64,000 nucleotides of DNA, from assembly GCA_041666045.1 (NCBI GenBank), contig JBAYHR010000001.1:187391-251390 (forward strand). Direction: 5' to 3'. Numbering within the stretch: the first letter of the stretch is position 1; each line of letters begins with the position of its first letter. Of this stretch, positions 5,625 to 25,854 are shown piece after piece. The notes beneath the pieces were generated by a model, which saw only the letters and a list, made by a program, of their open reading frames with translations, had not been told where the DNA came from and made no database searches. The stretch comes from Minisyncoccota bacterium (lineage in GTDB: Bacteria; Patescibacteriota; Minisyncoccia; Phycocordibacterales; UBA9973). A program made the position numbers and the translations under genes.

Positions 5625-5625
5625 A

Positions 5626-5868: not shown

Positions 5869-5907
5869 AATGTATATATTATAAACTAATTATTATTTTT
5901 GTAAATG

Positions 5908-5994
5908 CGGAGATGGGAGGATTTGAACCTCCGATTGAGTTTCCCCAATGCTGGTTTTCGAAACCAGTGCCTTCAACCACTCAGCCACATCTCC
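5908..5994 (-). tRNA. tRNA-Ser (anticodon CGA)
   Basis: Reverse complement folds as: acceptor ggagatg/catctcc, anticodon stem ctggt/accag with loop ttCGAaa, long variable arm, T-arm ggagg-ttcaaat-cctcc. 87 nt, CCA not encoded. Confidence 0.8.
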
Positions 5995-6080
5995 TTTTAT
6001 TAATTTAAATCTAACATTTTTTGCCATTTTTCCAAAAATAATATAGTATATTAATTGTTATCTTCATTTTTAATAAATAT

Positions 6081-6152
6081 GGCCCTATCGTCTAACGGTT
6101 AGGACATCGGCTTTTCAAGCCGGTAATCCGGGTTCGATTCCCGGTAGGGTCA
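6081..6152 (+). tRNA. tRNA-Glu (anticodon TTC)
   Basis: Acceptor ggcccta/tagggtc, anticodon stem tcggc/gccgg with loop ttTTCaa, T-arm ccggg-ttcgatt-cccgg. 72 nt. Confidence 0.8.
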
Positions 6153-11515: not shown

Positions 11516-11640
11516 CCATTTTTACTATTATATAAAGATAAAGAATTTTAAAAAGGTAACCACTATTTCTAAAAATAATTTAGAAAATTAATGCCTACCC
11601 TCTCACTTTCCTACCTCGTTCATGCCTCCCTTCCCGCATA

Positions 11641-11689
11641 GCAAGATTGCGTATGGACTGTCAACAATGACAGCCATACGCAATCTTGC
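11641..11689. repeat. 49-bp near-perfect palindrome (22-bp arms, 4-nt loop) in intergenic region
   Basis: gcaagattgcgtatggactgtca-acaa-tgacagccatacgcaatcttgc, one bulged base. No T-run follows, so it is not a canonical terminator. Confidence 0.6.
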
Positions 11690-11818
11690 GGTGGACTCTG
11701 TCCCCCGTGCCCCCAGCAAAAACAGTTTCAATCGTAAATTGAAACTGATAAAAATAAATTTAATTTATAAGAATGCACTACCCGAAATTAAATTAACTAA
11801 ATTAAACTTGCAACAACT

Positions 11819-13252
11819 TTAATGCGAAATAATTAACTTCTGAAACATTTGCTTTTCTTTTGTTTGCACTTCAATAATATACATGCCTTGCGGTAATTGT
11901 GAAGTGTTAACTTTTACTTTATTTGCTGAATAATTTTGTTGTTTTAATAATTTACCTTCTATTGTATAAAGCTCTACTTCTTTAATAATTTGCTCATTCT
12001 CTGTTGTTATTTCAAATGAAGTGTTGGCGGGGTTAGGATAAATACTTAAATTACTTTCATTTATTATTTCGGGAATGCTATTACTTTGACTACAGGTATC
12101 AATATAAGAGCCACCAATCCATTTGGCAATTCGCAGAATACTATCACCATCAATAGTCCAAAAGCCACCACTTACATATAAAGTATCCTTATCCCATCCA
12201 ATTGCAGTTATTCTATTATCGAAATTACCGCCTAACCCGCACCATTTTGAACCATCCCATTTTGCAATATATTTTGCTGGAACACCTCCTGCATAACTGA
12301 ATATACCACCAATGTAAAGCTCACCATTATGAATTTTCATATCGTGAATTTGCCCATTATCTGATATGGAACCCGACAAACCAAGAGTACCACCTCCAAC
12401 ATCTTTCCATTGGGTTCCGTTCCACCGCTGAATAAAATTACCGACATTGCCGTCCTGAAGGTAAAATGCACCTGAAATATAAAGTTCGTCTTTATAAACC
12501 ACCATATCCTCAAGACCTGACATTCCACCGTGCATACCACCACCAACATTAACCCATGATGAACCATTAAATTTTATAATATCTGAAATAGTATCATTAT
12601 CAAAATTGCCACCAATATATAATTCATCATTATAATTCGCTATAGCTAAAACGTAATTAATGTCAGGGGTAGTCCACAGCATAGGGAAACTATTTACATC
12701 ACTCCAATTACTTCCATTCCATTTAGCAAGACTGTTAACATGAATAGTTCCAGCAGAATCAAATGTGCCACCAACATATAATTCATTGTTGATTTCTTTA
12801 AAACAATAAATAGAACCATTCACACCAGTACCAACAGTATCCCATGTTATACCGTTCCATTTAGCTATATGACGAAATTTACCAAATAAATATATGTTAT
12901 AACCACCAACATATATTTCGTTATTGTATTTTGTAATAGCAGTTACTGTAGCCCCCATATTAAGTCCAAGTGACAAAAAATTATTTCCATCCCATTTAGC
13001 AATACCACGAATATTATCAACCCCTAACAAATAAAAATATCCTCCGATATACATCTCATTTTCAATGGTGTCTTCATATATACAATTCGCACCCTCCCTA
13101 ATTCCGCCAATACCCTGCCAATTTTGTGCATTAGTAACTACAGGACTTATTATAAGCCAGAGTATAAAAAAGCGGACTAACATATTATTTGTCCTACACC
13201 AAATTCTTTGTTGGAGAGAACTCCAACAAAGAATTAAAAAACGGGTTAACAT
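11819..13252 (-). CDS. Secreted beta-propeller-like repeat protein with T9SS-type C-terminal sorting domain
   Basis: Repeated IAKWNG-x-W...LYVGG-F blades. C-terminal LSIYPNPANTSFEI...VELYTIEGKLL...QGMYIIEV matches the Por_Secre_tail pattern. Likely true start is MLVRFFILW (signal peptide) at 13183. Confidence 0.7.
   Translation of the reverse strand: MLTRFLILCWSSLQQRIWCRTNNMLVRFFILWLIISPVVTNAQNWQGIGGIREGANCIYEDTIENEMYIGGYFYLLGVDNIRGIAKWDGNNFLSLGLNMGATVTAITKYNNEIYVGGYNIYLFGKFRHIAKWNGITWDTVGTGVNGSIYCFKEINNELYVGGTFDSAGTIHVNSLAKWNGSNWSDVNSFPMLWTTPDINYVLAIANYNDELYIGGNFDNDTISDIIKFNGSSWVNVGGGMHGGMSGLEDMVVYKDELYISGAFYLQDGNVGNFIQRWNGTQWKDVGGGTLGLSGSISDNGQIHDMKIHNGELYIGGIFSYAGGVPAKYIAKWDGSKWCGLGGNFDNRITAIGWDKDTLYVSGGFWTIDGDSILRIAKWIGGSYIDTCSQSNSIPEIINESNLSIYPNPANTSFEITTENEQIIKEVELYTIEGKLLKQQNYSANKVKVNTSQLPQGMYIIEVQTKEKQMFQKLIISH
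13202..13235. repeat. 15-bp perfect inverted repeat (aattctttgttggag / ctccaacaaagaatt) flanked by direct repeats aacatattattt
   Basis: Read directly. Lies at the junction between the 1276-aa and 477-aa T9SS-type genes. Confidence 0.55.
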
Positions 13253-13253
13253 A

Positions 13254-16200
13254 TTATTTTTGTTTTATTATTTTACCCATGTGATTTTTACCTGAAATAT
13301 TTACAACTACAAAATAAATTCCATCTGAATAATCAGTTAAATTAATAGTTTTATTAAATGAACCTGCTAAATTATTAGAATTATTTTCGAATAATTTTTG
13401 TCCCATTGAATTATACACTGAAATTGTTATATTTTCTTTTTCTTTAAATTCTGCTTTTAGAGTATAAATTCCATTGCTTGGATTTGGATAAATAATAAAC
13501 GGTATTTTTGAATTAATAGTATTTTCTTCGATACCATATAAAATTGAATTTAAATCGAAACGTGCAATAAAACCATCGCTGAAATTACTGCTTGCATTTT
13601 CCCACTGTATCCATGCACCATTACCAAGATCAACAATAGGGAAAGCAGGCGTAACATAGTGCATACTACTAGTTCCTCCAACTAAATAAAGTCTATTATT
13701 GCTTGAAACAGTGCAAGCGTTTCCAAAATCATTTTCAGAACCTCCGAAATAAGTAGCCCAAATACGTTCATTATCACTAAAAGTGAATCCTAAAATATAG
13801 GCATCGCTTATATTAGAAGAATTAGCTATAGTATCCTGATTATATGCTCCGCTTAAAGATAAAGTATCTAATCCTCTTGTAGAACCTACTACAAAAAAAT
13901 AATCATATTTCATTGCAATAATATCATTTCCTGTATTAAAATCAGTATTTCCATAATATGTTGACCATAATCTATTTCCATTGTTACTGAATCTTGAAAT
14001 AAAAGTATTACTTGTACCATTAAGGGTAGTATCGCAATACGCAGGTGAACCGGGATTGTACCAAGGAAAATTTGTACTGCTTGTATTTCCTGTTATTAAT
14101 AAATTTCCACTGCCGGAAATATTTAACGCAATACCATTTTCATCACCACTTCCACCAAAATATGTTGACCAAACAATGGCATCAGAAGAGTTAAATTTTG
14201 CTATAAAAGCATCTGAAGTACCACTAATAGCATTATCAAAATAAGCACCGCTACCCGGATTAGTAACATTCATATCGTTACTTGAAACAGTACCTGTTAT
14301 AAAAACATTATCAGAATTATCTGTTTTAACGCTTGTTATCTCGTTTCCACTACTAGTCCCGGTATTAAAGAATGTTGCCCAAAGCCGTGCACCTTGCTTA
14401 GTAAACTTTGTTATTAGTCCGTCTCCTTTTGTACTATTATAATATGCACCCGGTAATGAATCTAAAGGAGTATTATTAACACTTCCTACACCAACAATAT
14501 ACAAATTATTGTTATTATCGCCAGTTATACTGCAAAAGAGGGAAGAACTATAATAAGTGTTCCAAATTATATTATTTCCGTTCGGATTCAATTCTAATAT
14601 AAAAGACCCTCCAGATGTACTGTCAACATAAGCACCAGATGGTTGTGAATTAACAGGTTGAATTGGAAAATCAGTACTACTTGCTTCTCCAACAACATAT
14701 ATATTTCCAGTAGTATTATCGGGGAAAATAGAGTATCCTACATCAAAACTTGTTCCGCCATAATATGTTACAAATTTTCGATGACCAGTATTATCGAATT
14801 TAAGAATTGTTGCATCTACATCGCCATGAAAATAATTACTTGATAAACCATTATATGGCGGAAAATTATTACTTGAAGTAAAACCTGTAATATAAGAATA
14901 TTGATTATCATTGTCGGTTTCTATGTCATGAAATCCATCGGGTACACTACCACCATAATATGTACTCCAGTCGAGATTGCCAATTTGTTGCTGTTGCTGT
15001 GTATGTCCCAAGTCAACCTGAATTATTAAAGCCTTAGCTGTATTATATGAACCAATATTAAATTGGTAATAATTATATGTGCTGTCTGTTTGCCAGTCGG
15101 CTGTCCAGCCAGTAATGGTATCGACTGTATTGTCGGTTTCCAACTGGTAAACTGTTGGTCTTTCATAAGTAATACTGCCAATGGAGCTATTTATTGTTAA
15201 TTCATTTGTAGTACCATCTAAATTAAATGAACTTGCACCGTCGTATTCCATCATAATGTCCGTAGGGTCTCCGCCCGGTTTAACAATAAAATAGTATTTT
15301 ATTCCGTTTTGGTTACTGCTGTACATTAAGTCAATGTTTGGATATAGTTCGGTAGTAACTAACTTTTTGTTACCACGTATTTCAGTAACTCCATCGGAGC
15401 AATGTGCTAAAAAGTAATTCATATATTCAGTAGTTTCTTCTAAAGGGTATGTTTTTGCATTTGTATTACATTTTGAAAATGCAACATCTATACGGTGTAA
15501 TGTATCTGTTGTGCTTATAATAGTATCAACATGTGCAAAAACAAAACTGTTACTATTTTTTCTAATATAAAATTCGGGAGAAGAATTTTTAGCATAATAT
15601 TTAATATCTGGTACAAGGTTAGTGTCTGTATCTATTATTTGTCCACTATTTTTGTAATATGAAAAACTATTTAGTGGGTCTTCACCATTGTAATCGGTAG
15701 GTGTAATAATATCTTTTTCAACATATTTTATAGTATAATATTCAAATTCACCAGGTGCAGTTTCACTTTCGCCTGTTACAACAATATCTTGATTGTTATC
15801 AATTGTAATATTTGTAACTTTATCGTTCAAATGATTTTCACCATCATTATGGATTGTCCAAATTACATTACCACTGGCATCGTATTTCATTGTATAATAA
15901 TCTGTACTGTCAATTTGCGTAAAAAAATAACCTGAGACATAAATATTTCCTGATGTGTCTATTGCCATAGCATAAGCTTCATCATCACCATCTAATGAAT
16001 CGTTAAATGTTTCGACCCATTGTTGAGTTCCACTGCTGTTATATTTTATTGTGGTAATATTTTTACCTTCTGTTGAAGAAGTTGTATAACCAGTAACATA
16101 GACATTACCAGAAGCATCAACTTTAATTCCTTTAGCAATATCATCAAGATTACTTCCACTATTATAGGTATTTTCCCAAGCTAAAGAAAGTGTTGAAGTA

Positions 16201-17084
16201 AGTTTTATTATATCGTAATTGTAACCTTGTCCGGAAACAGGTGTTGCTCCAACAATGTAAATATTACCTGATGCATCTTCAACCATATCGTTTACCTGAT
16301 CTATCCCTGTTGAACTATTCGAGCTTATAGAACCGAATCCCCAAGCACCTGTAGATTTATTAAAACTTTTACTGCACCATTTATAAGTTGTTGTGCCTGT
16401 TTGAAGTATGCCTGATACAGTTCCATTAGTACTACCAATGCTGATTTTAACTCCGGCATCGTTCAAGTTTGAAGAATGATTGTAACGACTTGCCCATTGC
16501 TGGGTTCCACTGCTGTTATATTTGATTGCCATTAAGTCAGTATTTGGAGTTGCATTATAACTGCTTCCGGTTATATAAACATCCCCGTTTGAATCAACTA
16601 CAATTTCTGCTCCTGAATCATAACTGCCTCCAGTTCCATTATAAGTTGACAGCCATTGCTGTGTACCGCTACTGTTGTATTTAATAGTGATAATATCGGC
16701 ATCGGTTGATGATGTAGTTACTGTTCCAGTAACATAGACATTTCCACTGCCATCAACATATAAACCTGCGCCAATATCCTGTCCGTTTGCACCACCGTTA
16801 TATTGTTGAATCCATTGCAATACTCCTGATGAATTATATTTGGCAGTAAGAATATCATAATTATTATTTCCGTTCATTGTTGCTCCTACTATATACACAT
16901 TGTTGCTACCATCGGTTTTGGTAACATTTTTATAAAAGAAGTTCTGCGAACCGTCTGTACTTGACCAGTCGGCGAATACTTTTAATTCGCTTTGCGAAAA
17001 AACTGTTTGAACAAAAGCCATAAGGCTTAAAAAGAAGCAAAATGCAATGCTTACTTTGATAGATTTTGTAATTGTTGTTTTCAT
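13254..17084 (-). CDS. Giant secreted SBBP beta-propeller-repeat protein with T9SS-type C-terminal sorting domain
   Basis: Signal peptide; many SBBP-like repeats (YN-SG-QW...Y-G---D-G-GL-VD-SGNVYVTG); C-terminal IYPNPSNGIYTLKAEF...ISVYNSMGQKLF...DGIYFVVV matches the Por_Secre_tail pattern. Confidence 0.75.
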   Translation of the reverse strand: MKTTITKSIKVSIAFCFFLSLMAFVQTVFSQSELKVFADWSSTDGSQNFFYKNVTKTDGSNNVYIVGATMNGNNNYDILTAKYNSSGVLQWIQQYNGGANGQDIGAGLYVDGSGNVYVTGTVTTSSTDADIITIKYNSSGTQQWLSTYNGTGGSYDSGAEIVVDSNGDVYITGSSYNATPNTDLMAIKYNSSGTQQWASRYNHSSNLNDAGVKISIGSTNGTVSGILQTGTTTYKWCSKSFNKSTGAWGFGSISSNSSTGIDQVNDMVEDASGNIYIVGATPVSGQGYNYDIIKLTSTLSLAWENTYNSGSNLDDIAKGIKVDASGNVYVTGYTTSSTEGKNITTIKYNSSGTQQWVETFNDSLDGDDEAYAMAIDTSGNIYVSGYFFTQIDSTDYYTMKYDASGNVIWTIHNDGENHLNDKVTNITIDNNQDIVVTGESETAPGEFEYYTIKYVEKDIITPTDYNGEDPLNSFSYYKNSGQIIDTDTNLVPDIKYYAKNSSPEFYIRKNSNSFVFAHVDTIISTTDTLHRIDVAFSKCNTNAKTYPLEETTEYMNYFLAHCSDGVTEIRGNKKLVTTELYPNIDLMYSSNQNGIKYYFIVKPGGDPTDIMMEYDGASSFNLDGTTNELTINSSIGSITYERPTVYQLETDNTVDTITGWTADWQTDSTYNYYQFNIGSYNTAKALIIQVDLGHTQQQQQIGNLDWSTYYGGSVPDGFHDIETDNDNQYSYITGFTSSNNFPPYNGLSSNYFHGDVDATILKFDNTGHRKFVTYYGGTSFDVGYSIFPDNTTGNIYVVGEASSTDFPIQPVNSQPSGAYVDSTSGGSFILELNPNGNNIIWNTYYSSSLFCSITGDNNNNLYIVGVGSVNNTPLDSLPGAYYNSTKGDGLITKFTKQGARLWATFFNTGTSSGNEITSVKTDNSDNVFITGTVSSNDMNVTNPGSGAYFDNAISGTSDAFIAKFNSSDAIVWSTYFGGSGDENGIALNISGSGNLLITGNTSSTNFPWYNPGSPAYCDTTLNGTSNTFISRFSNNGNRLWSTYYGNTDFNTGNDIIAMKYDYFFVVGSTRGLDTLSLSGAYNQDTIANSSNISDAYILGFTFSDNERIWATYFGGSENDFGNACTVSSNNRLYLVGGTSSMHYVTPAFPIVDLGNGAWIQWENASSNFSDGFIARFDLNSILYGIEENTINSKIPFIIYPNPSNGIYTLKAEFKEKENITISVYNSMGQKLFENNSNNLAGSFNKTINLTDYSDGIYFVVVNISGKNHMGKIIKQK

Positions 17085-17735
17085 AATTGATAATTTTTAG
17101 TTAATATAAGTTTAAAAAAAATTCAAAATTCCTTTTATGGCTTATAGTAGCGGAAATGATTAAAAGTTACCCAACAATTAAATTTTATTTTTTAAAACCT
17201 TTAAAATTTTACAAAAAAAAGGGCATGGGACATAACTGTATTCATACTGAGGCTCTCGCGAAGCCCACGTCACAAATAAGTATGCCCACGCCTTTGGCGT
17301 GAGCGTTATACTTATTATTCTAATGACGTTATAAATTTGCGAGATTCCAGTAAGAGAATAACAATAAACGCTACCAATATTTTTTAAAGAACGCATGTTA
17401 ACATTTTCATGTTTACTAAACAAAGTTACAATACTTTTATTATAATGACAAAATATTTAAAATATTTTGTTTTAAACCTAATTTTAACTTAAAAAAGGTA
17501 AAATTATCACTACTTTATAAATTCCATTAAAAAAGAGTTTGAAATTTTAAAAGGTAACCACTTTAATTCAAAGTTTATTTTATTTATATAACGTTTAAAG
17601 GGTTAAAAGTAATTCACATTCTCTTCAAATTGTCATCTGACAAGGCTTTTAGAAGGACGATAATAAATCATAAATCAGGGTGCAGAAAAGGTGTTTAATT
17701 AGGTGCAGAAATTTTTCCTTGATTTTTTCAATTTG

Positions 17736-17767
17736 CATAAAAAGAAAAGAGAGGCAACTGCCTCTCT
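17736..17767 (-). terminator. Intrinsic terminator (minus strand) immediately downstream of the tRNA-like element
   Basis: Perfect 8-bp stem agagaggc-aact-gcctctct followed on the minus strand by tttctttttat. Confidence 0.5.
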
Positions 17768-17774
17768 TTCAAGT

Positions 17775-17830
17775 ACCCCGGACCGGAATCGAACCGGTAC
17801 AGCCTTTGGGGCCACAGGATTTTAAGTCCT
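17775..17830 (-). ncRNA. tRNA-like element: 3' portion only (anticodon-like stem-loop cttaaaa, long variable region, canonical T-arm accgg-ttcgatt-ccggt, 3' acceptor-like ccgggg)
   Basis: Minus-strand reading aggacttaaaatcct...ggccccaaaggctgtaccggttcgattccggtccgggg. The T-loop is canonical, but no matching D-arm or 5' acceptor strand could be found upstream. Either a degenerate tRNA(Leu-TAA-like), a tRNA 3' fragment from an old integration, or an unusual ncRNA. Confidence 0.3.
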
Positions 17831-18125
17831 TTTGTATTTATTAATATAAATACGATACAGCCCATTGTTTCTATGTTTAGCGCAAAACGATACACCTCAT
17901 AAGGTGCAGTAGCAAGGTGCGGAAAATCTTATTTTCCACTCATTTTTTTAATTAATATTTCTAGTGTTTCTATACTAAGTTTGATATCATTTTTATATGA
18001 ATAAAGTTTCGTAAGCCAAATTGATAGGTCACCATTTCGTGCTAGCACGAGAAGTATACTAGAAGCCTTCCATTTTAGTGGCTTTTTATATGTTTAAGAA
18101 AACTTAAAAATGCTAGAATACAACT

Positions 18126-18890
18126 ATGACAGAAGAAATAAATATTCTTTTAAAGTTTAACAAGGAACTACATGATCTTGTAGATACTAAACTACAGCTT
18201 GATATTACTGATGGTGATAACAAGGCTTTTTTCACTGCGTTCGCAATGGGTAAAGCATTCAAGACAGATGAAGCCATTGGTCTTCTCTGCAGAAGCGGAT
18301 ATGGTGAGGATGCTTTTATGCTCGCTCGCACATTATTTGAATTAATGGTCACTACTGCTTATATTCTTCAAGATACTACTGAAGATCGTTTAACTCGGTA
18401 TGCAAATCACGACTGGGTTACCAGAAAACAAATGTATGACTATGTAGTTTCAAATGAATCCTTACTTGCTGGATTAAACAAAGAAATTAAATCTGGCAAC
18501 AGACCAGACACAGTTGCAGAAGTAGAAGCTGAATATAAAAAAGTGATGGATAAATACAAATACCAAAACGGTACTTGGTCTGACAAGAGTATCAAGGACA
18601 TGTCCGAATCAATCGAAAGACTCGATGCTTACAACACGGTTTACCGATTACAGTGTACTTTGGGTCATACAAACGCCAGAAGCATTAATGAATATGTGAA
18701 TGTTACCGAAGAAGGAACTATTTTAAATATCGGACCAAACTGGGATCTTGTAAAAAATACCTTAGTGATAACGTTTGACTGTTTCTTTCATATCACTCAA
18801 GAAGCAAATAGTAAGTTTGGATGGGGGCTAGAAGATACCTTAGAAGAAATATCGAAAAAATGGGCAGAAGAAGTTGGTAATTTAAAGTAA
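18126..18890 (+). CDS. Uncharacterised all-alpha protein, first gene of the DUF4238 operon; possible HEPN-like domain
   Basis: 254 aa. C-terminal region YRLQCTLGHTNARS fits an R-x6-H HEPN-type motif. Its stop is 4 nt before the next gene. Confidence 0.45.
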   Translation: MTEEINILLKFNKELHDLVDTKLQLDITDGDNKAFFTAFAMGKAFKTDEAIGLLCRSGYGEDAFMLARTLFELMVTTAYILQDTTEDRLTRYANHDWVTRKQMYDYVVSNESLLAGLNKEIKSGNRPDTVAEVEAEYKKVMDKYKYQNGTWSDKSIKDMSESIERLDAYNTVYRLQCTLGHTNARSINEYVNVTEEGTILNIGPNWDLVKNTLVITFDCFFHITQEANSKFGWGLEDTLEEISKKWAEEVGNLK

Positions 18891-18894
18891 AACA

Positions 18895-19863
18895 ATGACA
18901 AACAGTAAAAAACATCATCACTATATACCACAATTTTACATTAATGGATTTACTAATCACAAAGGTGAAGTTTTTGTTCTTGAACATTCAACAGGTAAGA
19001 TAAATAAGCAAAGTAAATACGGAACATTCCATAAATATAAATTTTATACAGTAGACTTTTCTAAACACAAAGAACGAGATCCCGAATCGGCTCAAAAAAT
19101 TAAAAAGGCTTTAGGTATAGAAAATGTAGACACAAGTAATGTAAAAAAATACCCCGATATGATAGAAGATTTGTTAGGTGATTCAGAGACTGTTTCTGCT
19201 CCTATAATTAAGAAGTTAATTGAGGGTAAACAAATCTCTTCGACAGAAAAAATTGAACTCTCGACTTTTATAGCACTAATGTACACAAAAACTCCATCCT
19301 TCCACAATTTTGCCTCTGAAATGGAAAAGCAAATGATGAACAAAAGTATAAAGAAACTATTTTTAGAAAAAGAAAAAGTAAAAGATCTTTATAATAAAAT
19401 GCTGGCAGAAGGCTATGAGGATAAAATTGATGTACAAGAACTTTTTAAACTTGTTGAAGAAGATAGATATAAAATTGAAATACCAAAAGAATTGACTATA
19501 CAAACGATGCTAATTGGAACAAGTGTTATAGATAGGATTTTGTATAACAAAACATGGTTGATAATGGAAGCACCTTCTACAACTAGTTTTATAACAAATG
19601 ATCAGCCGGTATTTATGAATCATCCCCTTGTGAATAAATATGGCCCATTTAGTGTTGGAGTTGGCACGTCAAAAGTAGAAATCATTTTTCCACTTTCTAA
19701 AGAGCTTTTATTGATTATGAAGGATACTCCAAAAGGAAATATGATTATGCATAAAAAAATTGATCGGACGAAAGTACGTGATTTAAATAAATTAATTTTT
19801 GCTCGCTCTGGCGATTATGTTATTGCTCGTGATTTTGCCTTAATAAAGAAATTAATGAAATAA
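18895..19863 (+). CDS. DUF4238-family protein (paralog 1)
   Basis: N-terminal HHHYIPQFYINGF matches the DUF4238 signature H-Y-h-P-Q-F-Y-L-x-x-F; internal SFITNDQPVF matches the family's SDNPV motif. 322 aa. Confidence 0.65.
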   Translation: MTNSKKHHHYIPQFYINGFTNHKGEVFVLEHSTGKINKQSKYGTFHKYKFYTVDFSKHKERDPESAQKIKKALGIENVDTSNVKKYPDMIEDLLGDSETVSAPIIKKLIEGKQISSTEKIELSTFIALMYTKTPSFHNFASEMEKQMMNKSIKKLFLEKEKVKDLYNKMLAEGYEDKIDVQELFKLVEEDRYKIEIPKELTIQTMLIGTSVIDRILYNKTWLIMEAPSTTSFITNDQPVFMNHPLVNKYGPFSVGVGTSKVEIIFPLSKELLLIMKDTPKGNMIMHKKIDRTKVRDLNKLIFARSGDYVIARDFALIKKLMK

Positions 19864-19865
19864 GT

Positions 19866-20939
19866 ATGAATACATTATTTTTAAAATTTAATATGTATAG
19901 AAACTATTCAGGTAAAAAATTCATGAATTATGTTTTTAGAAACCGTCTTGGTAAAACCATATGGACGACAAGATTGATTATTTTCATAATGAATATTCTA
20001 GACAGAAATCAGGTCTACGTAAATACTGGTGATGTAGATAATTTTGATCATTACGTACCACAATTATTACTTAACAGATGGAGAATCTCAGAAACAGGAG
20101 AAAACAAAAATAAAATATTCTTCTGGTCTAAAATAAATAAAACTATTAAACCTAAAAGTATTAAGAAGGTTGCAGGAGAAATAAATTGGGATACAAGTTC
20201 AGCTGATGGTAAACCAAGCGACTATATAAGTAAAAAACTATATGCGGAAGTTTTAGAACAAAAAGCTAGTTATATAATAAAATATGTAAATACTAATAAA
20301 ACCCCTGAATTAACTTTTTTAGAAGAATCTACTCTTTCAGTTTTTGTGGCTCATCAAATTATAAGAGTTCCTAATTTTAGAAAAACACTTAATAGATTTT
20401 TATCCTTGGGTTATTCTAAAGGGCTTATTTCAAAAGAAGAACTAGGAAGTAAAAAGGTATTAATAGAAAAAGTAGCAAAAAATACTATTAATATTACCTA
20501 CGATCAGTTAGATAAAGAAAAACCACTGTTTGTTTTAAAAGGAGCGAAACAACAAGAATCTCTTATATCGTTAGTTGTTGCAGATGATATAGCTGAAAAA
20601 ATTTACAGAACAAGGCATTTAAAATTTTTAGAAATATCTGAGGAATATGAAAATGAATTTGTTATTTCTGATAATCCGGTAGTTTTTCTAGATATGGGAA
20701 GAAAAACTATCTTAAATCATATACCATGGTGGGAGGTAGGAATAGAAAAATTTATAATCTTTATGCCAATTTCTCCTAAAAAAGCACTTCTATATTCACC
20801 AATAAAAGATGAACAGGATCTACCAATAAAAGAATTTATTGATTTATTAAATTTTGGACAATATACAAACTGTTCAGAAGGAGTATTTAGTAAAAAAGAA
20901 ACAATAATTCAAAAACATTTGAAATATTATGATTTGTAA
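19866..20939 (+). CDS. DUF4238-family protein (paralog 2, divergent)
   Basis: DHYVPQLLLNRW and FVISDNPVVFL motifs. Starts 3 nt after paralog 1's stop; an alternative start is ATG 19989 (MNILDRNQ). Confidence 0.6.
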   Translation: MNTLFLKFNMYRNYSGKKFMNYVFRNRLGKTIWTTRLIIFIMNILDRNQVYVNTGDVDNFDHYVPQLLLNRWRISETGENKNKIFFWSKINKTIKPKSIKKVAGEINWDTSSADGKPSDYISKKLYAEVLEQKASYIIKYVNTNKTPELTFLEESTLSVFVAHQIIRVPNFRKTLNRFLSLGYSKGLISKEELGSKKVLIEKVAKNTINITYDQLDKEKPLFVLKGAKQQESLISLVVADDIAEKIYRTRHLKFLEISEEYENEFVISDNPVVFLDMGRKTILNHIPWWEVGIEKFIIFMPISPKKALLYSPIKDEQDLPIKEFIDLLNFGQYTNCSEGVFSKKETIIQKHLKYYDL

Positions 20940-20985
20940 TATAGATTTATTTTGGTACAAAGAAAATTTTTAAAACTCTAAAAAG

Positions 20986-22800
20986 TTATTTACTTAACAA
21001 TTCAGTATTCCAAGAAGAAATTACTCCTTGTATATTTGCAACCCAGTCATCTGAATTATTATTATCATTTGTACTATTAGCAATTTTTTCAACCAATTCT
21101 TTTAAATAACTATGAGCAAAGTATTTTCCACCTTCTCTCATTACTCGTAGTGTTTTTAATAAACCAACAAATTGTGAAATTGTAATTGGGGCAATTTTTT
21201 GTCGACTACCTTTATAACCAATAGTATTTGCAATGTAAAAAGTTTCAGCACTATCAATATGGATTGATGGAGCAATGAATATACAATACGAATCATCATT
21301 ATTTTTTTCAAAATCTCGTAAATGTCGCATAACTGGCTGGCCTTCATTAAACCATTGATCACGTCCATTCAACATTGTAACTTCACAAATCATATTAAAA
21401 TTACTGTAATAACATTCAATATCAGCCATTCCCCCAGGAGCAGTTGAAGTTGGTTCATTATCATCACCAACTGGATAATTAGGCTTAATTTCCTTTGCAT
21501 CATTTAATGCATGAAGTCCCATAGTTGAAAGATACTCTAATAACAAAGGACGATTTTCTGCATTATATATATTTTCTAATTGATCAATATATTGAGTAAT
21601 TGAATCAATTGGTTGTGATTTTCTGTGGTTATCTTTCTCCTGTAAATCTTTACGTATAATTCTTAATTCTTCAATATATGAATTCAATTTAGTTTCAGAC
21701 ATCACAGAAATATCTTTAATTTTTTGGACAACTAGACCAAGTGTACCTTGTAATATTTTTATTTCATCATAAACTTCTATTGCTATTTTACTTAACTTTT
21801 CTTTTGTTAACCAAGGTAAAATCGGTAAACTATCATTGGACATATAATTAAGATAAGCATCTCTATCAGTAAACTCCTTAGCTTTATAAAACTCATTCTC
21901 AAACAATGCTTCAATCTCTGTGTGACGATTTGGCTCTAAGTCAACATAAAATCCATTACCACGAATACGAATAAACTTTGTTAAACGAAAATATCTAATA
22001 GCATTATCGCCATAATCTTTCAAATTCGTTAGTAATTTATTGATTTTAGTTTTTTCTCTTGTATTTAAAAAATTAATAGCAAAATTTAAACGAAAATTAT
22101 CACGAATTTTTTTACGTTCTTGTTTATTTTTATTTTTTTGCAAATCTCGTAATTCAATAATTTTATTTGCATAATTTTCAATATCAGTATATTTAACTAA
22201 TGAAGGAACAAAAAATGAAAATTCTCTTTTACTTAATCCGACTGGATTATTACCACGACTTGTTTCAAGTTCATTAACTTTACTTATTAATTTAAGCATT
22301 GCTACAAAAGGTACGACATTATAATCACCATTATTACTAAAATCATCATTGGCAGGATTTGGTATCTGCCATTTTATAAATGATTTTAGAAAAACATCAC
22401 CGGCATCTTTTTCACTCGCAATGAGTTTTTTGCCAAGATCGGTAATTTTGACTATCCCATTATCAATAAAAGCAAATCCAAACTTTGTAAGTGGATTAAT
22501 TGACTGACGACCTCTCATTGAAAAATCTTTATAATTTTTAATTTCAATAATACGATCGACGATTTGATCACTAATTTCATTATCAACATTATTAATTAGG
22601 TCAATAATTTCTCTTGGTAAGCGATTGTAAAACTGTTGGTTTCCAAAACCATACAATCTATCTTTAATTAAAATTTTTTGATATTTTTCTTGATTATCAT
22701 TATTCCATTCCTGATTTTCAAGTAACTGTAAAGAAATCAAAAAACTTCTTAATCTTTCAGGGTTTCTAACAGTTGTTGTAATTGACCATGCCTTTAACAT
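20986..22800 (-). CDS. Putative Type IIS restriction endonuclease (FokI/AlwI-family-like)
   Basis: 604 aa, directly downstream of and co-oriented with a fused double m6A MTase, as for FokI (~587 aa). Candidate acidic nuclease cluster GGMADIECYY...ICEVTML. No sequence-level confirmation was possible. Confidence 0.5.
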   Translation of the reverse strand: MLKAWSITTTVRNPERLRSFLISLQLLENQEWNNDNQEKYQKILIKDRLYGFGNQQFYNRLPREIIDLINNVDNEISDQIVDRIIEIKNYKDFSMRGRQSINPLTKFGFAFIDNGIVKITDLGKKLIASEKDAGDVFLKSFIKWQIPNPANDDFSNNGDYNVVPFVAMLKLISKVNELETSRGNNPVGLSKREFSFFVPSLVKYTDIENYANKIIELRDLQKNKNKQERKKIRDNFRLNFAINFLNTREKTKINKLLTNLKDYGDNAIRYFRLTKFIRIRGNGFYVDLEPNRHTEIEALFENEFYKAKEFTDRDAYLNYMSNDSLPILPWLTKEKLSKIAIEVYDEIKILQGTLGLVVQKIKDISVMSETKLNSYIEELRIIRKDLQEKDNHRKSQPIDSITQYIDQLENIYNAENRPLLLEYLSTMGLHALNDAKEIKPNYPVGDDNEPTSTAPGGMADIECYYSNFNMICEVTMLNGRDQWFNEGQPVMRHLRDFEKNNDDSYCIFIAPSIHIDSAETFYIANTIGYKGSRQKIAPITISQFVGLLKTLRVMREGGKYFAHSYLKELVEKIANSTNDNNNSDDWVANIQGVISSWNTELLSK

Positions 22801-22820
22801 GGTCTAATTATACCATAAAA

Positions 22821-24827
22821 TCAATAATTCGTAATCAGAACTTCTATTGTTATATTGTTTTTTGCAGTAGAATGATAATTTGAATTTTTATAATTATAAT
22901 TTAATTTATTAATTTTGAAATTATTTTTTTTAACCCAATTTTTCATTATTTCATTGGTTTTACCCTTATGCTCCAAAACATTTGATAGAGCAAAGCGAAC
23001 TCCCTTTTTATTTAAGCGTGTAAGCAAAGAATATAAATCTTTTTCATCTTGTTCAGTCCAACCACCCAATTCATTATAACTTGCTAGCCCCAATAAATAA
23101 GGTGGGTCTAAATAAACAAAATCATCTTTTTGTAAATTTTCTTTTTCTATTTCTCTAAAGTCTTGAGTTTTGAAAACTATCTTTTTTTCATTAGAAATTT
23201 GATTAAAGCTTGCAACATTTTTTCTTAAACTACCATTATAATCTCGCTTGCCGACCGGTAAATTAAAGCCTCCATTACTATTAAAACGAATTTGATTATT
23301 GAATGAGTAAAGAATCAACACTAACAATAGATCTATTCTCGTTTTGTTTTTATTAAATTCATTACGTAATTTCAAAAAAGAATTCTTATTATATTGCCCA
23401 AGCCCCACAGAACTATCGGCATTATAGTGAGAATACCCTTTGATATAACTTTGACTTAATTCAAATTTATCAATTATATTGATAATTCCTTGATTTAAAT
23501 CTTCAAAATTATTATTCTGAATTAGTTTTAATAAATTAACAACGTATCTATTTTTTTCTAAACAAACAATATTTTTAGCTGTAGCATTAATACCAACATT
23601 TGCACCACCAGAAAATACGTCATAAAATACATTTATTTCGTTTGGAAATAATTTTACGATTTGTGGTAATAATTTATGTTTTCCACCAGTATAATTAAGA
23701 GGAGATTTTACAAAGCCGTTTTGAACAGGATTGTTTTTTGAAGCAATAACTAATTTTTGAGTTCTTTTTGCAACATTAACTTTACAAAGAAAAATCCTCT
23801 CTTTTAAATTGTCCTTGCTAGATTTTCCAGTTGTAAATTGTTTAAAATCAGTTTCAAAAATACGAACATCTCCTTTTCTTTTTAACGCCGATAAAATTTC
23901 ATGGTCACTAATTCGCGATTGAGATCGTGCATTTCCTGATGTTCCCATATCATTATATGAAACTAAAATATATTTTGCATTAATATTATCTATCAAATCA
24001 CAAAAAGCAACACCGGCTGATTTCATATTGTATTTGCTTTTAATATGAGAACGATCAATTTTTTTTGCAACTCCAAAAACCTTTTCTTTTTTCCATGTAG
24101 CTACATTTTCAAGTAAATGATATGCGTCAGAGTATTGACGAGAGTTGTATGGTGGATCAATATAAACAATATCAGCTTTTATCTTTTTTACCAATTCGTT
24201 GGCGTCACTTTTATAAATTTCTGCGGAATATTTAGAATTTTTTATATCAAGTGGAAGTAAAAATAGTTTTTTATCGGGGATATCAATTTTTCTATAAGCA
24301 TCATAGTGTCCAACAGTATTAGCGATTTTATCAAAAGCATAGATTAAAGAAGTTAATAAATATGATTTTTCTCGTTTTGTAATTATTTTTTTTTCAAACA
24401 ATTTTTCAATATCATCCCTAATTACTCCTATTTTTTTTGAATTAGTTGTATTAAAATAGGTATTAGAAAAATTATTTGAAAAATAATTATTGCTATATTT
24501 TTTTAAATCAAGTTTATTGTAAAAATTTAATCGTTCTTTAAGTTTATCTTCTCTTATTATATCTCTACCGAAAAATGCATTATAGATATAATTATTTGAA
24601 TCGAGAATATCATTAACGATTATTTTTGAACGACTATGGAAATGATTTGCAACCGTACCAGTACCAGCAAAGATATCAGCAAATGATTCAAATTGTATGT
24701 TTTCAGTTTCTAAAATATTATCAATAAAACTAAGTAACTTAGTTTTTGAGCCAAGATAACGTCTTTGATTAATAGAAATTATTTTATTTCCAAAGTATGC
24801 ATCGTTCATATATAAATAGTATATCAC
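22821..24827 (-). CDS. Fused tandem N6-adenine DNA methyltransferase (two D12/Dam-class domains, M.FokI-like; Type IIS modification enzyme)
   Basis: Domain 1 has RRYLGSKTKLL, FAGTGTV and VYIDPPYNS. Domain 2 has NYTGGKHKLL, FSGGANVG and VYLDPPYLL. 668 aa. Confidence 0.85.
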   Translation of the reverse strand: MIYYLYMNDAYFGNKIISINQRRYLGSKTKLLSFIDNILETENIQFESFADIFAGTGTVANHFHSRSKIIVNDILDSNNYIYNAFFGRDIIREDKLKERLNFYNKLDLKKYSNNYFSNNFSNTYFNTTNSKKIGVIRDDIEKLFEKKIITKREKSYLLTSLIYAFDKIANTVGHYDAYRKIDIPDKKLFLLPLDIKNSKYSAEIYKSDANELVKKIKADIVYIDPPYNSRQYSDAYHLLENVATWKKEKVFGVAKKIDRSHIKSKYNMKSAGVAFCDLIDNINAKYILVSYNDMGTSGNARSQSRISDHEILSALKRKGDVRIFETDFKQFTTGKSSKDNLKERIFLCKVNVAKRTQKLVIASKNNPVQNGFVKSPLNYTGGKHKLLPQIVKLFPNEINVFYDVFSGGANVGINATAKNIVCLEKNRYVVNLLKLIQNNNFEDLNQGIINIIDKFELSQSYIKGYSHYNADSSVGLGQYNKNSFLKLRNEFNKNKTRIDLLLVLILYSFNNQIRFNSNGGFNLPVGKRDYNGSLRKNVASFNQISNEKKIVFKTQDFREIEKENLQKDDFVYLDPPYLLGLASYNELGGWTEQDEKDLYSLLTRLNKKGVRFALSNVLEHKGKTNEIMKNWVKKNNFKINKLNYNYKNSNYHSTAKNNITIEVLITNY

Positions 24828-24994
24828 ATTATATTAAAAGCAATAAATAAATACTGTTTTAATTTAAAAAAAGTATCAAATGATTTATAAAAATAACATT
24901 ATAAATTGTTTAAGAAATTAAATTTTTATAATCAAATTCTTTTAAAACAATAATTAAAATAAAATATATACAGGTATTTTTTATATATTTTTAA

Positions 24995-25030
24995 TAAAAA
25001 AACGCCGATCAAAAATCAGCGTTTTTTGTA
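24995..25030 (-). terminator. Intrinsic terminator after the 161-aa membrane protein gene (bidirectional A/T runs)
   Basis: Imperfect hairpin cgccgat-caaaa-atcagcg flanked by an A-run and a T-run. Confidence 0.45.
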
Positions 25031-25033
25031 AAT

Positions 25034-25519
25034 TTATTTTTCTAAATCTTTTATTTCTTTATCCAGCTCTTTATTGTATTTTTTACTATCTTTAAAGAAA
25101 ATAAAAAGAGCATACATAAGACAAATTATGCCTAAACTAGAAAAAATATAAAAAATAAAATCATTGTCTATATAAAAACCATAGACAATAAATCCTAATA
25201 GGATTAATGCAACACCTAACCAAATAAAGAATAAAATTCTTTTCTCTTCTTTTATAAAAGAAAAATACTCTAAATACATTAATTTAATTTTTTTAATATA
25301 TTTATTTTCATAAATCTCTAACATCAGACAAAGAAAATAAAATAAAAAAAACATTCCTATTGTGCCCATAAATACCATAATAACAGTATTTATAATACTT
25401 TTTTCAAAGCAATTTGCCACTATGGCAATTACTAAAAAAAATATACCAAGAAAAAAACTTACTGCAATCTTCTGCTCTTTTCTTTTTAATTCAGATTCAA
25501 CTTTTACAATGTCTATCAT
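25034..25519 (-). CDS. Hypothetical 4-TM membrane protein
   Basis: 161 aa with four hydrophobic helices. Paired with the upstream 65-aa ORF, 11-nt gap. Confidence 0.45.
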   Translation of the reverse strand: MIDIVKVESELKRKEQKIAVSFFLGIFFLVIAIVANCFEKSIINTVIMVFMGTIGMFFLFYFLCLMLEIYENKYIKKIKLMYLEYFSFIKEEKRILFFIWLGVALILLGFIVYGFYIDNDFIFYIFSSLGIICLMYALFIFFKDSKKYNKELDKEIKDLEK

Positions 25520-25530
25520 AATAATTAGAT

Positions 25531-25728
25531 TTAAGGGGTTTTTATTTTTGATCTTTTCTCTTCAATTATAGTTTTTTTTGTTTTTTCATTTATAATAAAA
25601 TTATATTTTTTTTTGATATTCTCAGGTATATACATTTTATTAAATGCTGCTTTTCTTGCTTCAAATAAAACATCTTCAATTGAATTTAATGGTTCAACTT
25701 CTATTGGTTTAATTTTTTTATTTTTCAT
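25531..25728 (-). CDS. Hypothetical small soluble protein, partner of the 4-TM protein
   Basis: 65-aa, Lys-rich ORF. Confidence 0.35.
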   Translation of the reverse strand: MKNKKIKPIEVEPLNSIEDVLFEARKAAFNKMYIPENIKKKYNFIINEKTKKTIIEEKRSKIKTP

Positions 25729-25854
25729 ATATATTTAATTTTTAAAAGTTTTTACACCGGACAAATTTAATAAAAGCATACCATATAAGTATTAAAAAGT
25801 AAATAGATAATTTACCCTTGAAAATATAGATTTTATTCGCTATAATCTTCAAAC

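Follow-up and report, generated by a model that had tools for sequence, protein, structure and literature searches.

Transcription attenuators of the trp and pyr type, T-box leaders and transcriptional riboswitch platforms are 5′ leaders that share the orientation of the genes behind them and end in an intrinsic terminator. Leaders of the terminator/antiterminator kind follow a three-state logic, in which a competitor re-uses one strand of the terminator and is itself opposed by a further hairpin. To our knowledge, the regulation of type IX secretion (T9SS) cargo is poorly understood and few cis-regulatory RNAs have been described for Bacteroidota. With respect to mobile DNA, islands carrying large serine recombinases are found beside tRNA genes, and the Islander survey recorded a 3′ tDNA fragment in 3760 of 3919 islands, with anticodon-centred sites, the commonest crossover class, in 2083 (PMC4383910).

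The locus described here lies in a 64,000-nt stretch (the window, meaning the whole of the DNA that was analysed) of a Minisyncoccota bacterium (GCA_041666045.1, contig JBAYHR010000001.1, positions 187,391-251,390). Within it we studied a spacer of ~1 kb (window 17085-18125) that is made up of three unrelated parts, namely a leader RNA, the severed end of a tRNA-Leu(UAA) gene and the start of a defence cassette. A sequence-only reading had treated this spacer as a single junction; the features that it listed are all present, but they are distributed over these three things. Our best explanation, to which we give slightly better than even chances when its parts are taken jointly, is a leader switch next to a tRNA-Leu scar and a mobile cassette, with the first two derived from Bacteroidota. 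The main features are as follows.

13254-17084, minus strand: SBBP/DUF7948 protein of 1276 aa with a T9SS C-terminal sorting domain, the first gene downstream of the leader (Pfam match)
17213-17416, minus strand: conserved structured leader RNA of ~205 nt (homologues and covariance model)
17773-17830, minus strand: orphan 3′ piece of a tRNA-Leu(UAA) gene, its last 58 nt (identity to full genes)
18028-18125, plus strand: 5′ end of a mobile DUF5677/DUF4238 cassette, with the 14-nt palindrome TCGTGCTAGCACGA (18037-18050) and a degenerate hairpin (BLAST)

Homologues of the leader RNA precede orthologous T9SS-cargo operons in three Bacteroidota contigs (L006, 9510-9719; L008, ~18-212; L012, 294-460 and 1-140). 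Our comparison therefore covers five copies from four loci, the window included, of which the L012 pair are tandem paralogues. Approximately 200 nt are conserved with a mean column identity of 66-71%, whereas the adjacent orthologous proteins are only 49-59% identical. In 4/4 loci the RNA is co-oriented with the downstream genes, and the gap to the next start codon is 128 nt in the window, 282 nt in L006, 41 nt in L008 and 0 nt in L012, where the tail of copy B overlaps the start codon. The RNA occurs once in the 64-kb window and was not found upstream of the orthologues in five further operons (L009, L010, L011, L016 and L017), in a virus collection scanned with two patterns and one protein-guided search, or in phage and plasmid records. 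It is also uncatalogued: among the 4227 models of Rfam 15, no family matched the window copy at E<=10 save RAGATH-12, which scored 19 bits against a gathering score of 75, and the copies in L006, L008 and L012 gave nothing at E<=5. A protein-coding origin for the conserved block was rejected, as an open frame across the leader is present only in the window copy, each frame of the other copies is interrupted by 2-9 stops, and the indel lengths are not divisible by three.

In terms of its location, the RNA accounts for what had been described as a GC-rich near-palindrome at 17221-17310. The block is present but is not one palindrome; it comprises two hairpins (17284-17304, the right half of the described palindrome, and 17250-17265) and the 3′ tail of the conserved RNA. 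The suggestion of one or more small RNAs at the junction likewise holds in that a structured RNA exists, although it sits in this palindromic block, 350-550 nt from the tRNA-like piece. Could the block instead act as DNA, for example as an origin, a transposon end or a REP/MITE-like repeat? Both strands of this long, imperfect inverted repeat do fold well (z = -3.7 and -4.1). We nevertheless regard this as very improbable, because the block has one copy in the window and is found elsewhere only beside homologous operons, and because its conservation is strand-specific: many G.U pairs, together with a GAAA-to-UACG tetraloop swap in the 5′ hairpin, are compatible with the minus strand only, and covariance model R1 scores 102-178 bits on the sense strand of the leader copies against at most 28 bits on the antisense strand. 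A promoter and a U-run also stand at the correct ends of an RNA transcribed in this direction. These and two related boxes are located as follows.

17421-17452, minus strand: predicted Bacteroidetes-type promoter of the leader RNA, with TTTG at 17452-17449, a 20-nt spacer and TAACTTTG at 17428-17421 (pattern match)
17162-17173, minus strand: box TGGGTAACTTTT, between the leader terminator and the T9SS cargo gene, whose ATG lies 78 nt further on (pattern search)
17549-17560, minus strand: second copy of the box (TGGTTACCTTTT), ~100 nt upstream of the leader promoter (pattern search)

The leader promoter is the sole full match to TTTG-N17-23-TAnnTTTG on either strand of 17000-18200, and its -7 box aligns with an equivalent box in L006 (TATATTTG) and with a near-match in L008 (TAAACTTG). 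The start of the RNA (17416) was estimated from this -7 box, and its 3′ end was set at the U8 run (17220-17213). Three matches to the pattern TGGKTAMCYTTT were counted in the 64 kb, where 0.15 would be expected, all of them on the minus strand; two lie just before start codons of T9SS cargo genes and the third lies upstream of the leader promoter. The same box is also found in L006 and L010.

A feature shared by all five leader copies is the retention of two mutually exclusive predicted folds that draw on common strands. The hairpins concerned are listed below.

17284-17304, minus strand: hairpin P5, GCUCACGCC-AAA-GGCGUGGGC, the rod tip of fold A, whose 3′ strand is re-used in the terminator fold (pairing in five copies)
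17302-17372, minus strand: H1, the 5′ hairpin of the terminator fold, AGCGUU..UGUUAUUC with GAAUAAUA..AACGCU (predicted in copies)
17213-17292, minus strand: H2, the long terminator hairpin, 17292-17272 with 17245-17222, tip P6 at 17265-17250 and U8 at 17220-17213 (five copies)

Fold A is one long rod in which the 5′ half pairs with the 3′ half through helices P2, P2b, P3, P4 and P5. Across the five copies 86.5% of its cells are paired, compared with ~40% in slid controls, and both-sided changes are seen in 19 of its 41 pairs, a level reached by 0 of 500 shuffles; these covariation statistics reflect few independent events, since five copies represent four loci and two of the copies are tandem paralogues. 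Helix P2b is kept by four different complementary sequences among the copies. P5 is paired in 97.7% of cells, with C-G to U-A and G.U changes, and its G.U pairs are valid on the minus strand only. Fold B, which consists of H1 and H2, is paired in 86.3% of cells against 41-47% in slid controls. H1 was predicted independently in 4/4 full-length copies, with 87.5% and 100% of its cells paired; its pairs are mostly invariant, and in the window copy its energy alone is not significant (z = -1.3). H2 is present in 5/5 copies at -29 to -32 kcal/mol (z = -3.1 to -4.8), with P6 stem sequences that vary from copy to copy (GGCU/AGCC, GGUA/UACC, GGUAC/GUACC and GGUUC/GGACC), and it is followed by a U-run in 4/5 copies. 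In the window the hairpin directly abuts U8, and H2 with its U-run, like the homologues, has the make-up of an intrinsic terminator, that is, a stable G+C-containing hairpin and an immediate U-run.

The two folds compete for the leader tail, which is unpaired in fold A. In 5/5 copies this tail is complementary to the 3′ strand of P5 (-14 to -18 kcal/mol), and it covaries with that strand. Nearly all conserved bases of the leader belong to helix strands of fold A or fold B; the alignment showed no aptamer-like unpaired conserved core, and no leader peptide or other conserved open reading frame runs through the copies. The calculated energies are -47 to -65 kcal/mol for fold A and -38 to -50 kcal/mol for fold B, and fold A is the stabler by 6-15 kcal/mol in the four full-length copies.

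With respect to function, we read the RNA as a putative transcription-attenuating leader that alternates between a read-through rod and a terminator. In this model, the Bacteroidetes-type promoter would start a ~205-nt transcript able to adopt either conserved fold. Fold A would leave the C-rich tail and U8 without a hairpin, so that RNA polymerase would continue into the cargo genes. In fold B, H1 would close the 5′ half and free the 3′ half to form H2 at U8, giving an intrinsic terminator. The choice would presumably be made by holding or releasing the 5′ half, whether through a protein, another RNA, a metabolite or folding kinetics. Such a switch would share its logic with the terminator/antiterminator leaders, the rod re-using a terminator strand and H1 competing with the rod. 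It differs from known attenuators in having no Rfam match, leader peptide, specifier or T-box sequence, or recognisable aptamer core. Moreover, its antiterminator is a rod over the whole length that uses almost every nucleotide, and its terminator hairpin, of ~27 bp and with a structured tip, is of unusual length.

An alternative is that the RNA acts in trans, as a ~205-nt small RNA for which H2 is the constitutive terminator and which refolds into the rod after release, serving for instance as an RNase III substrate or a protein-binding scaffold, while the cargo genes have a promoter of their own. The RNA does have its own promoter and a strong terminator, the rod is the stabler fold, and in the window and L006 the gap to the cargo gene contains a promoter-like box between terminator and gene, so that in these two loci the gene may be independent of read-through. 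In L012 copy B and L008, however, the overlapping tail and the 41-nt gap leave no room for a second promoter. In addition, the orientation is always that of the downstream genes, the tandem copies look like tandem attenuators, and the tail covaries with an internal strand rather than carrying a conserved seed. We consider the trans-acting alternative unlikely, though with a real claim to attention, and the structured RNA seems to be a leader that acts in cis on the secretion-cargo operon, not a free small RNA. A more ambitious proposal, which we put forward as speculation that is probably too strong, is that this attenuating leader is the founder of a new class of bistable riboregulators, alternating between a full-length rod and a split fold, that would sense some signal and gate T9SS cargo operons in Bacteroidota, and that it moved across phyla into a candidate phyla radiation (CPR) genome, one with neither an outer membrane nor a T9SS, together with three intact cargo genes bearing T9SS tails and the stub of the donor tRNA-Leu gene.

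That stub is the second part of the spacer. The 58 nt are identical, 58/58, to the 3′ part of the full-length tRNA-Leu(UAA) genes in L005 (ARAGORN 370-455), where they correspond to positions 29-86, and in L004, which bears out the earlier recognition of a tRNA-like 3′ fragment on the minus strand. Its 5′ limit is the second base of the anticodon stem's 5′ strand, and its 3′ limit lies one base beyond the discriminator. It includes 4 bp of that stem, the uninterrupted loop (CUUAAAA), the long variable and T arms and the 3′ acceptor strand. An exact 53-mer taken from it and searched in two DNA collections matched genes of two other organisms only. The piece is of Bacteroidota type. Its surroundings contain the following elements.

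17735-17770, minus strand: intrinsic terminator directly after the tRNA piece (11-bp stem and U-rich tail)
17834-17853, no strand assigned: perfect 20-nt A+T-rich palindrome, GTATTTAT-TAAT-ATAAATAC (read from sequence)
17921-17949, plus strand: weak hairpin GGAAAAT-CTT-ATTTTCC at 17921-17937, a 5-nt gap and T7 at 17943-17949 (fold energy)
17679-17708, plus strand: a pair of GGTGCAGAAA repeats, 23 nt apart, between the tRNA piece and the T9SS genes (sequence search)
17903-17922, plus strand: GGTGCAG and GGTGCGG repeats, 13 nt apart, between the tRNA piece and the defence cassette (sequence search)

The terminator that had been noted immediately after the piece is sound, with an 11-bp stem at 17745-17770 followed on the minus strand by CTTTTTAT, an energy of -16.8 kcal/mol and z = -3.6 (1/200 shuffles as good). 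Its supposed plus-strand counterpart, a hairpin and T7, is present but weak, having 2 G-C pairs, -6.9 kcal/mol (8/200 shuffles as good) and a 5-nt gap before the T-run, which is not the form of an intrinsic terminator; a terminator scan made no call at 17921-17949 on the plus strand. The idea of opposed terminators accordingly survives for the minus strand alone. The 20-nt palindrome lies 3 nt off the broken end of the tRNA piece.

It had been proposed that the gene lacks a D-arm and a 5′ acceptor strand. Consistent with this, neither ARAGORN nor Rfam at gathering score (RF00005) called a tRNA at the site, and no complete tRNA emerged that had been mis-parsed. A separate candidate, in which the flank of the piece with its 20-nt palindrome would be a decayed D-arm, was dropped, as it gave 11/24 matches, a level reached by 5% of control windows. 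That the site is nonetheless a functional tRNA-Leu gene, either whole but unusual or interrupted by a group I intron, is an idea with some initial appeal, as the tRNA-Sec model aligns end to end and the host is a Patescibacterium, a member of a phylum rich in tRNA introns (PMC13011429). The tRNA-Sec alignment reaches only 28 bits against a gathering score of 47, however, and leaves most of the 5′ acceptor strand and D stem unpaired. The introns surveyed in Patescibacteria sit inside the anticodon loop, 35/36 for tRNA-Asn and tRNA-Asp (PMC13011429), whereas here the loop is uninterrupted and the break falls in the stem. Rfam gave no group I intron match, the first 28 nt of the tRNA-Leu gene are absent from the 64-kb window at up to 3 mismatches, leaving no 5′ exon, and nothing upstream of the piece complements CCGGGGU to complete a 7-bp acceptor stem. 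A functional gene at this site is, in our judgement, hardly credible.

The piece is better described as the orphan scar of a gene end, since a 5′ half, a second copy, an intron and a tyrosine integrase are all missing from the window. Specifically, a search of the window that included the right end of the defence islet found no second att copy or tRNA 5′ half, no intact tRNA-Leu lies within the 64 kb, and a Pfam scan of 40 of the larger open reading frames of the window found no Phage_integrase (PF00589). The break coincides with the anticodon stem base, the starting point of anticodon-centred integrase sites, and a recombination scar is therefore the most likely reading, rather than a random break. 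The displaced 3′ tDNA fragments of the Islander survey (PMC4383910; Williams 2002, cited there) offer the closest likeness: like them, the piece is a perfect 3′ copy that starts at a known crossover sublocation in the anticodon stem-loop, sits at the edge of a foreign block and keeps a native-looking terminator. Unlike those islands, the locus has no tyrosine integrase gene between tDNA and fragment, and the 64 kb hold neither such a gene nor a cognate intact tRNA gene; their sole recombinase, a large one of the serine family, lies 10 kb off where the block ends on its far side, and the tRNA is of Bacteroidota type in a Patescibacteria chromosome. The att-site remnant suggested by the sequence-only reading is thus plausible but incomplete, the true 3′ tDNA fragment beginning at the anticodon stem base being matched by no cognate tRNA, second copy or tyrosine integrase in the window.

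These same absences, of a tyrosine integrase, a partner repeat and an intact tRNA-Leu, would fit an arbitrary breakpoint of illegitimate recombination or deletion in place of a site-specific scar. Donor chromosome carrying tRNA-Leu, terminator, leader and T9SS operon might have been captured as it stood, or insertion of the cassette might have cut a resident tRNA-Leu. No break separates the piece from the donor-type leader and operon, which share its orientation, and the only nearby recombinase is of the serine type, which does not duplicate its target. The position of the break argues the other way, in that it keeps the stem-loop used by anticodon-centred integrases and a random break would fall within one base of that point in ~4% of cases by simple position counting. 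As for the cassette, ~200 nt (17831-18027) intervene between it and the tRNA piece, so it did not cut the piece directly. We regard an arbitrary breakpoint as the less likely origin, albeit one with appreciable weight, and prefer a recombination scar, in which the piece would be a non-functional edge of the block, contiguous and co-oriented with the leader and operon.

The GGTGCRG repeats to either side of the piece bear on a further possibility. Their clustering is real, although ggtgcag itself does not recur four times as first described: three copies are exact (17679-17685, 17702-17708 and 17903-17909) and the fourth is the variant GGTGCGG (17916-17922). The longer motif AGGTGCRGWA has three exact matches in 64 kb, all within 17701-17924, and a one-mismatch copy at 17678. 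These could be arm-type integrase sites, making the locus an attP-like site or the junction of two tandem islands in which both flanks of the tRNA piece are island DNA. In favour of this, the 10-nt motif stands twice on each side in one orientation, has no other exact match in the 64 kb, and is absent downstream of tRNA-Leu in L004 and L005. Against it, the window contains no integrase or excisionase gene, no other locus examined has the motif cluster, and the similarity between the flanks is weak; a candidate 40-nt direct repeat around the piece was rejected, its score being reached by 3% of real intergenic pairs. An attP-like site or island junction is doubtful in our estimation.

The third part of the spacer, the DUF5677/DUF4238 cassette, is horizontally mobile. 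Its homology to L014 and L015, at 84-85% nucleotide identity, begins at 18041 by BLAST and at ~18028 by alignment, and its middle gene is swapped relative to both. The boundary that had been placed between secretion-cargo and defence modules is supported and becomes sharper, lying where the cassette homology starts (~18028-18041), and the data support it as also dividing Bacteroidota-like DNA from the Patescibacteria gene pool. We dropped the 18037-18050 palindrome as a serine recombinase crossover site, because the similarity to L014 and L015 continues ~15 nt further left. Compared with PADLOC models, among which DUF4238-Pers and DUF5677 genes count as candidate defence genes, 18895-19863 matches DUF4238-Pers and 20986-24827 is a type II restriction-modification pair, consisting of an AlwI-family endonuclease and a fused double methyltransferase, whereas the DUF5677 gene and the second DUF4238 gene have no match.

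Turning to the origin of the block, the chromosome backbone is Patescibacteria. For its LepA, the 119 best non-self relatives show 80-96% identity; most of these are nameless, and every named one is Patescibacteria (Paceibacterota, Minisyncoccia, Nomurabacteria or Patescibacteria group) or an unclassified 'bacterium'. The housekeeping gene content is consistent with this assignment. The best relatives of the SBBP/DUF7948 cargo protein are instead from Bacteroidota, with identities of at most 59%, and among the named ones all are Bacteroidota or other members of the FCB group (Ignavibacteriae, KSB1), Patescibacteria being represented by the source MAG only. Given the Patescibacteria backbone, the T9SS block, leader RNA and tRNA piece therefore look Bacteroidota-derived, and the leader and the tRNA piece appear to have arrived together from a Bacteroidota donor. 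The same joins are present in separate assemblies of 265.6 kb (JGI/NCBI), 19.8 kb and 11 kb (Logan), and the same recombinase is encoded on a 244.9-kb ENA contig. Counting against a foreign origin, the nearest Bacteroidota homologue is only 59% identical. Codon usage and GC content of the T9SS genes are no different from those of the backbone, and dating the transfer by composition or codon usage was uninformative.

The block may represent an island with the tRNA piece at one edge and a large serine recombinase at the other end (6092-7816, beside tRNA-Glu). This gene was the only recombinase in the Pfam scan. It encodes a full-length Resolvase+Recombinase protein of 574 aa that directly adjoins tRNA-Glu, where the foreign block begins on the left, and some of its relatives align through C-terminal residues that are encoded antisense to tRNA-Glu. 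A protein of this size and domain content next to a tRNA gene is what the locus shares with large serine recombinase islands; a role in moving the block is putative.

In terms of significance, the tRNA stub is an ordinary kind of scar, of value as a precise marker of the block edge. A two-state leader with a clean terminator would provide a concrete, mutable handle on T9SS cargo regulation, and the covariance model could define a leader RNA family across Bacteroidota genomes. The presence of a Bacteroidota-type cargo block and its regulatory RNA in a Patescibacteria chromosome, seen in several assemblies, would be an unusual transfer if true, and may hint at which hosts an uncultured episymbiont can use. 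If the cross-phylum reading of the leader is true, it would point to a physical association of this ultra-small bacterium with a Bacteroidota host.

The spacer between a minus-strand cargo gene and the plus-strand DUF5677 gene is laid out as follows.

13254-17084, minus strand: SBBP/DUF7948 protein gene, 1276 aa, with a T9SS C-terminal sorting domain
17085-18125: spacer
17416 to 17213, minus strand: leader RNA of ~205 nt, with a U8 run at 17220-17213
18126-18890, plus strand: DUF5677 protein gene

The features that the sequence-only reading named here are all present in the sequence, and they split into three separate units. The tRNA stub, its terminator and the module boundary were correctly seen and are ordinary kinds of things; our main result is the leader RNA, which has two conserved, mutually exclusive folds and no match in the catalogues that were searched.

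The cargo protein's closest orthologue, at 59% identity, comes from Bacteroidetes bacterium GWA2_32_17, and a ~220-nt non-coding block upstream of its gene aligns to 17211-17428 with visible compensatory changes. Further copies lie upstream of the operons of a 55% orthologue (locus L008) and a 49% orthologue (locus L012), the latter in tandem on one contig (1-140 and 294-460), where the second copy has a degenerate U-run (UUUAUUAUG) in which a 125-aa ORF has its start codon. The RNA is absent from the five other orthologous loci examined. No Rfam family matches the element, and it has no coding potential. As judged from these comparisons, the block that had been described as GC-rich and palindromic is a conserved RNA.

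Its strand is settled by G.U pairs whose counterparts on the opposite strand would be A.C mismatches, by a tetraloop swap from GAAA to UACG in the 5′ hairpin, and by the covariance model, which scores the sense strand at 102-178 bits as against ≤28 bits for the antisense. A full Bacteroidetes-type promoter, TTTG-N20-TAACTTTG, is located at 17452-17421, and no other such match occurs within 1.2 kb; L006, a Bacteroidetes contig carrying the leader RNA, retains its −7 box, which has a near-match in L008. As a separate observation, L006 also holds a match to the DUF805 RNA (RF03081) at 3412-3511, barely over the gathering score.

With respect to structure, RNAalifold applied to the five leader RNA copies returned one long rod (helices P2, P2b, P3, P4 and P5; fold A), in which 86.5% of cells are paired (~40% in slid controls) and 19 of 41 pairs show changes on both sides, a value reached by none of 500 shuffles. 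Helix P2b is formed by four unrelated complementary sequences among the copies. The C-rich tail preceding the U-run is unpaired in this rod, yet it is complementary to the P5 3′ strand in every copy. Folded alone, the 3′ half gives one and the same long hairpin (H2, with tip P6) in all five copies, which ends directly at the U-run as a terminator (−29 to −32 kcal/mol; z = −3.1 to −4.8), and the 5′ half closes into a hairpin (H1) in each of the four copies that are full-length. This second arrangement as a whole, fold B, is 86.3% paired versus 41-47% in slid controls. Since the P2b pairing is exclusive to fold A, and the P6 stem and tail are exclusive to fold B, selection acts on both. Fold A is predicted to be the more stable (−47 to −65 versus −38 to −50 kcal/mol). 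Transcription yields H1 before the rest, so kinetics, or a factor holding the 5′ half, could decide between the folds. The comparisons show the two conserved folds, the promoter and the terminator; we infer regulated termination, regulator included.

In terms of how the RNA acts, we favor a cis role, because the tail of the second L012 copy overlaps the next ORF's start codon and only 41 nt separate the RNA end from the next gene in L008. These same two observations weigh against an independent small RNA, the main argument for which is a promoter-like box following the terminator in both the window and L006. This box, TGGKTAMCYTTT, occurs at the following places.

11551-11562, minus strand: window
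17162-17173, minus strand: window
17549-17560, minus strand: window
9865-9876: L006
458-469: L010, an orthologous locus lacking the RNA

A CTnnTATA-like element lies ~17 nt downstream of the box. Of the three occurrences in 64 kb, where 0.15 are expected, two lie a short way upstream of T9SS cargo genes and the third upstream of the leader promoter; the box may serve as an operator or as an alternative-sigma promoter.

The second unit of the spacer is the tRNA piece. ARAGORN called no tRNA at this site (five in the whole window), and neither did Rfam at gathering score. The complete canonical tRNA that the sequence-only reading had allowed for was likewise not recovered in a relaxed covariance scan: 17774-17859 (minus strand) aligned at 28 bits to the tRNA-Sec model, which has a long variable arm, and the fit was confined to the anticodon arm, variable arm, T arm and 3′ acceptor strand. 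Scanning species-representative genomes and JGI metagenomes with an exact 53-mer of the piece gave one match per collection. These were a tRNA-Leu(UAA) gene truncated by the contig end in a 'Bacteroidales' MAG (L004), and a full tRNA-Leu(UAA) gene adjoining tRNA-Gly and followed on the same contig by an outer-membrane-type ORF (L005). Positions 17773-17830 are identical to these genes at 58 of 58 nucleotides, and the identity ends abruptly past the second base of the anticodon stem, leaving the first 28 nt of the gene missing. That 28-nt part is absent from the 64 kb at ≤3 mismatches, and no second copy of the 3′ part is found there. A strong terminator (11-bp stem, −16.8 kcal/mol) lies directly 3′ of the piece.

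Because the host is a Patescibacterium, and group I introns are common in the tRNA genes of that phylum (PMC13011429), we considered an intron-split tRNA-Leu. The introns surveyed lie within the anticodon loop, those of tRNA-Asn and tRNA-Asp at 35/36 (PMC13011429). In the present piece the anticodon loop is intact and Rfam scans gave no group I intron match, and this explanation was rejected. Reading the 5′ flank as a D-arm was also dismissed, as the resemblance is not significant. The piece is a dead gene end. Of 3919 islands in the Islander survey, 3760 had a 3′ tDNA fragment and 2083 an anticodon-centered site (PMC4383910). Since the break falls at the anticodon-stem base, where this commonest integrase target class starts, the analogy favors a site-specific scar as its origin. 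Neither a tyrosine integrase nor an intact partner tRNA gene was found in the window. The tRNA-Leu 3′ part also matches Akkermansia phage Chambord (ON453894.1) at positions 1-55 and a second place (84% over 56 nt); this is an unrelated temperate element with the same gene end as attachment site.

Beyond the piece, the ~200 nt of 17831-18027 contain a perfect 20-nt palindrome, two GGTGCRG repeats and a weak hairpin with T7. That hairpin had been taken for a plus-strand terminator, which is unsupported; the GGTGCRG cluster is real.

The defense cassette follows. Similarity to contigs L014 and L015, which share it, begins at ~18028 in the alignment (BLAST homology of 84-85% from 18041), spans DUF5677 and picks up again, at 76-78%, over the second DUF4238 gene. 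The shared DUF5677...DUF4238 cassette (76-85% nucleotide identity) occupies 18028-20953 in the window, 9901-14388 in L014 and 246-4734 in L015, with the middle swapped: one DUF4238-Pers gene in the window versus 569-aa and 223-aa genes in the other two. A large serine recombinase adjoins the cassette in L015; in L014 the cassette comes after tRNA-Glu, and ~150 nt matching the 3′ end of the L015 recombinase gene are retained. DUF5677 has many relatives at 82-97% identity, and those that carry a name are less similar and belong to Patescibacteria. The rest of the islet comprises an AlwI-type restriction-modification pair and, in very A+T-rich DNA, two small membrane ORFs. Two further observations belong here: a perfect 14-nt palindrome, TCGTGCTAGCACGA, lies at 18037-18050, at the left edge of the cassette (in L014 and L015 its conservation is limited to the right half), and 24400-25850 (GC 18-21%) carries, between the restriction-modification pair and the first housekeeping gene, a 161-aa membrane ORF and a 65-aa ORF.

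The backbone (25855-64000 and 1-5994) has housekeeping genes right of the islet that resemble those of a reduced genome. Its LepA (42213-44027) is 80-96% identical to the 119 best non-self relatives, most of them unlabelled and the remainder labelled Paceibacterota, Minisyncoccia, Nomurabacteria, Patescibacteria group or unclassified 'bacterium'. By these affinities the chromosome backbone is Patescibacteria (Paceibacterota/Minisyncoccota), in line with the NCBI label of the MAG. In its leucyl-tRNA synthetase gene (49796-52732), the editing domain is followed by an inserted NUDIX domain (residues 376-498). Three genes at 8939-17084 encode T9SS C-terminal sorting domains, and the named relatives of the cargo proteins are Bacteroidota or other FCB-group bacteria. 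These domains, the TAnnTTTG promoter type and the other carriers of the RNA all point to Bacteroidota. Block and backbone are indistinguishable in composition. An assembly chimera is unlikely, because both junctions of the block recur at 100% identity in separately assembled contigs and the same recombinase is present on a 244.9-kb ENA contig. The left end of the block is arranged as follows.

5907-5994, minus strand: tRNA-Ser
6080-6156, plus strand: tRNA-Glu
6092-7816, minus strand: large serine recombinase, full-length, 574 aa

The recombinase adjoins tRNA-Glu, its ORF crossing the tRNA-Glu terminator and overlapping the tRNA, on the opposite strand, by 65 nt. With several database relatives the alignment extends through this C-terminal tail, a pattern that suggests a family of recombinases with elements sited at tRNA-Glu. 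This locus is probably the left end of an island holding the T9SS block.

The most economical picture has three steps. In a donor, tRNA-Leu, terminator, leader RNA and T9SS operon would have stood in that order on a single strand; a segment broken within the tRNA gene would now form part of an island in a Patescibacteria chromosome; and the 1-kb spacer would be the right edge of that island, set against a defense cassette from the Patescibacteria gene pool. This Bacteroidota-in-Patescibacteria setting is a second reason for another look at the locus.
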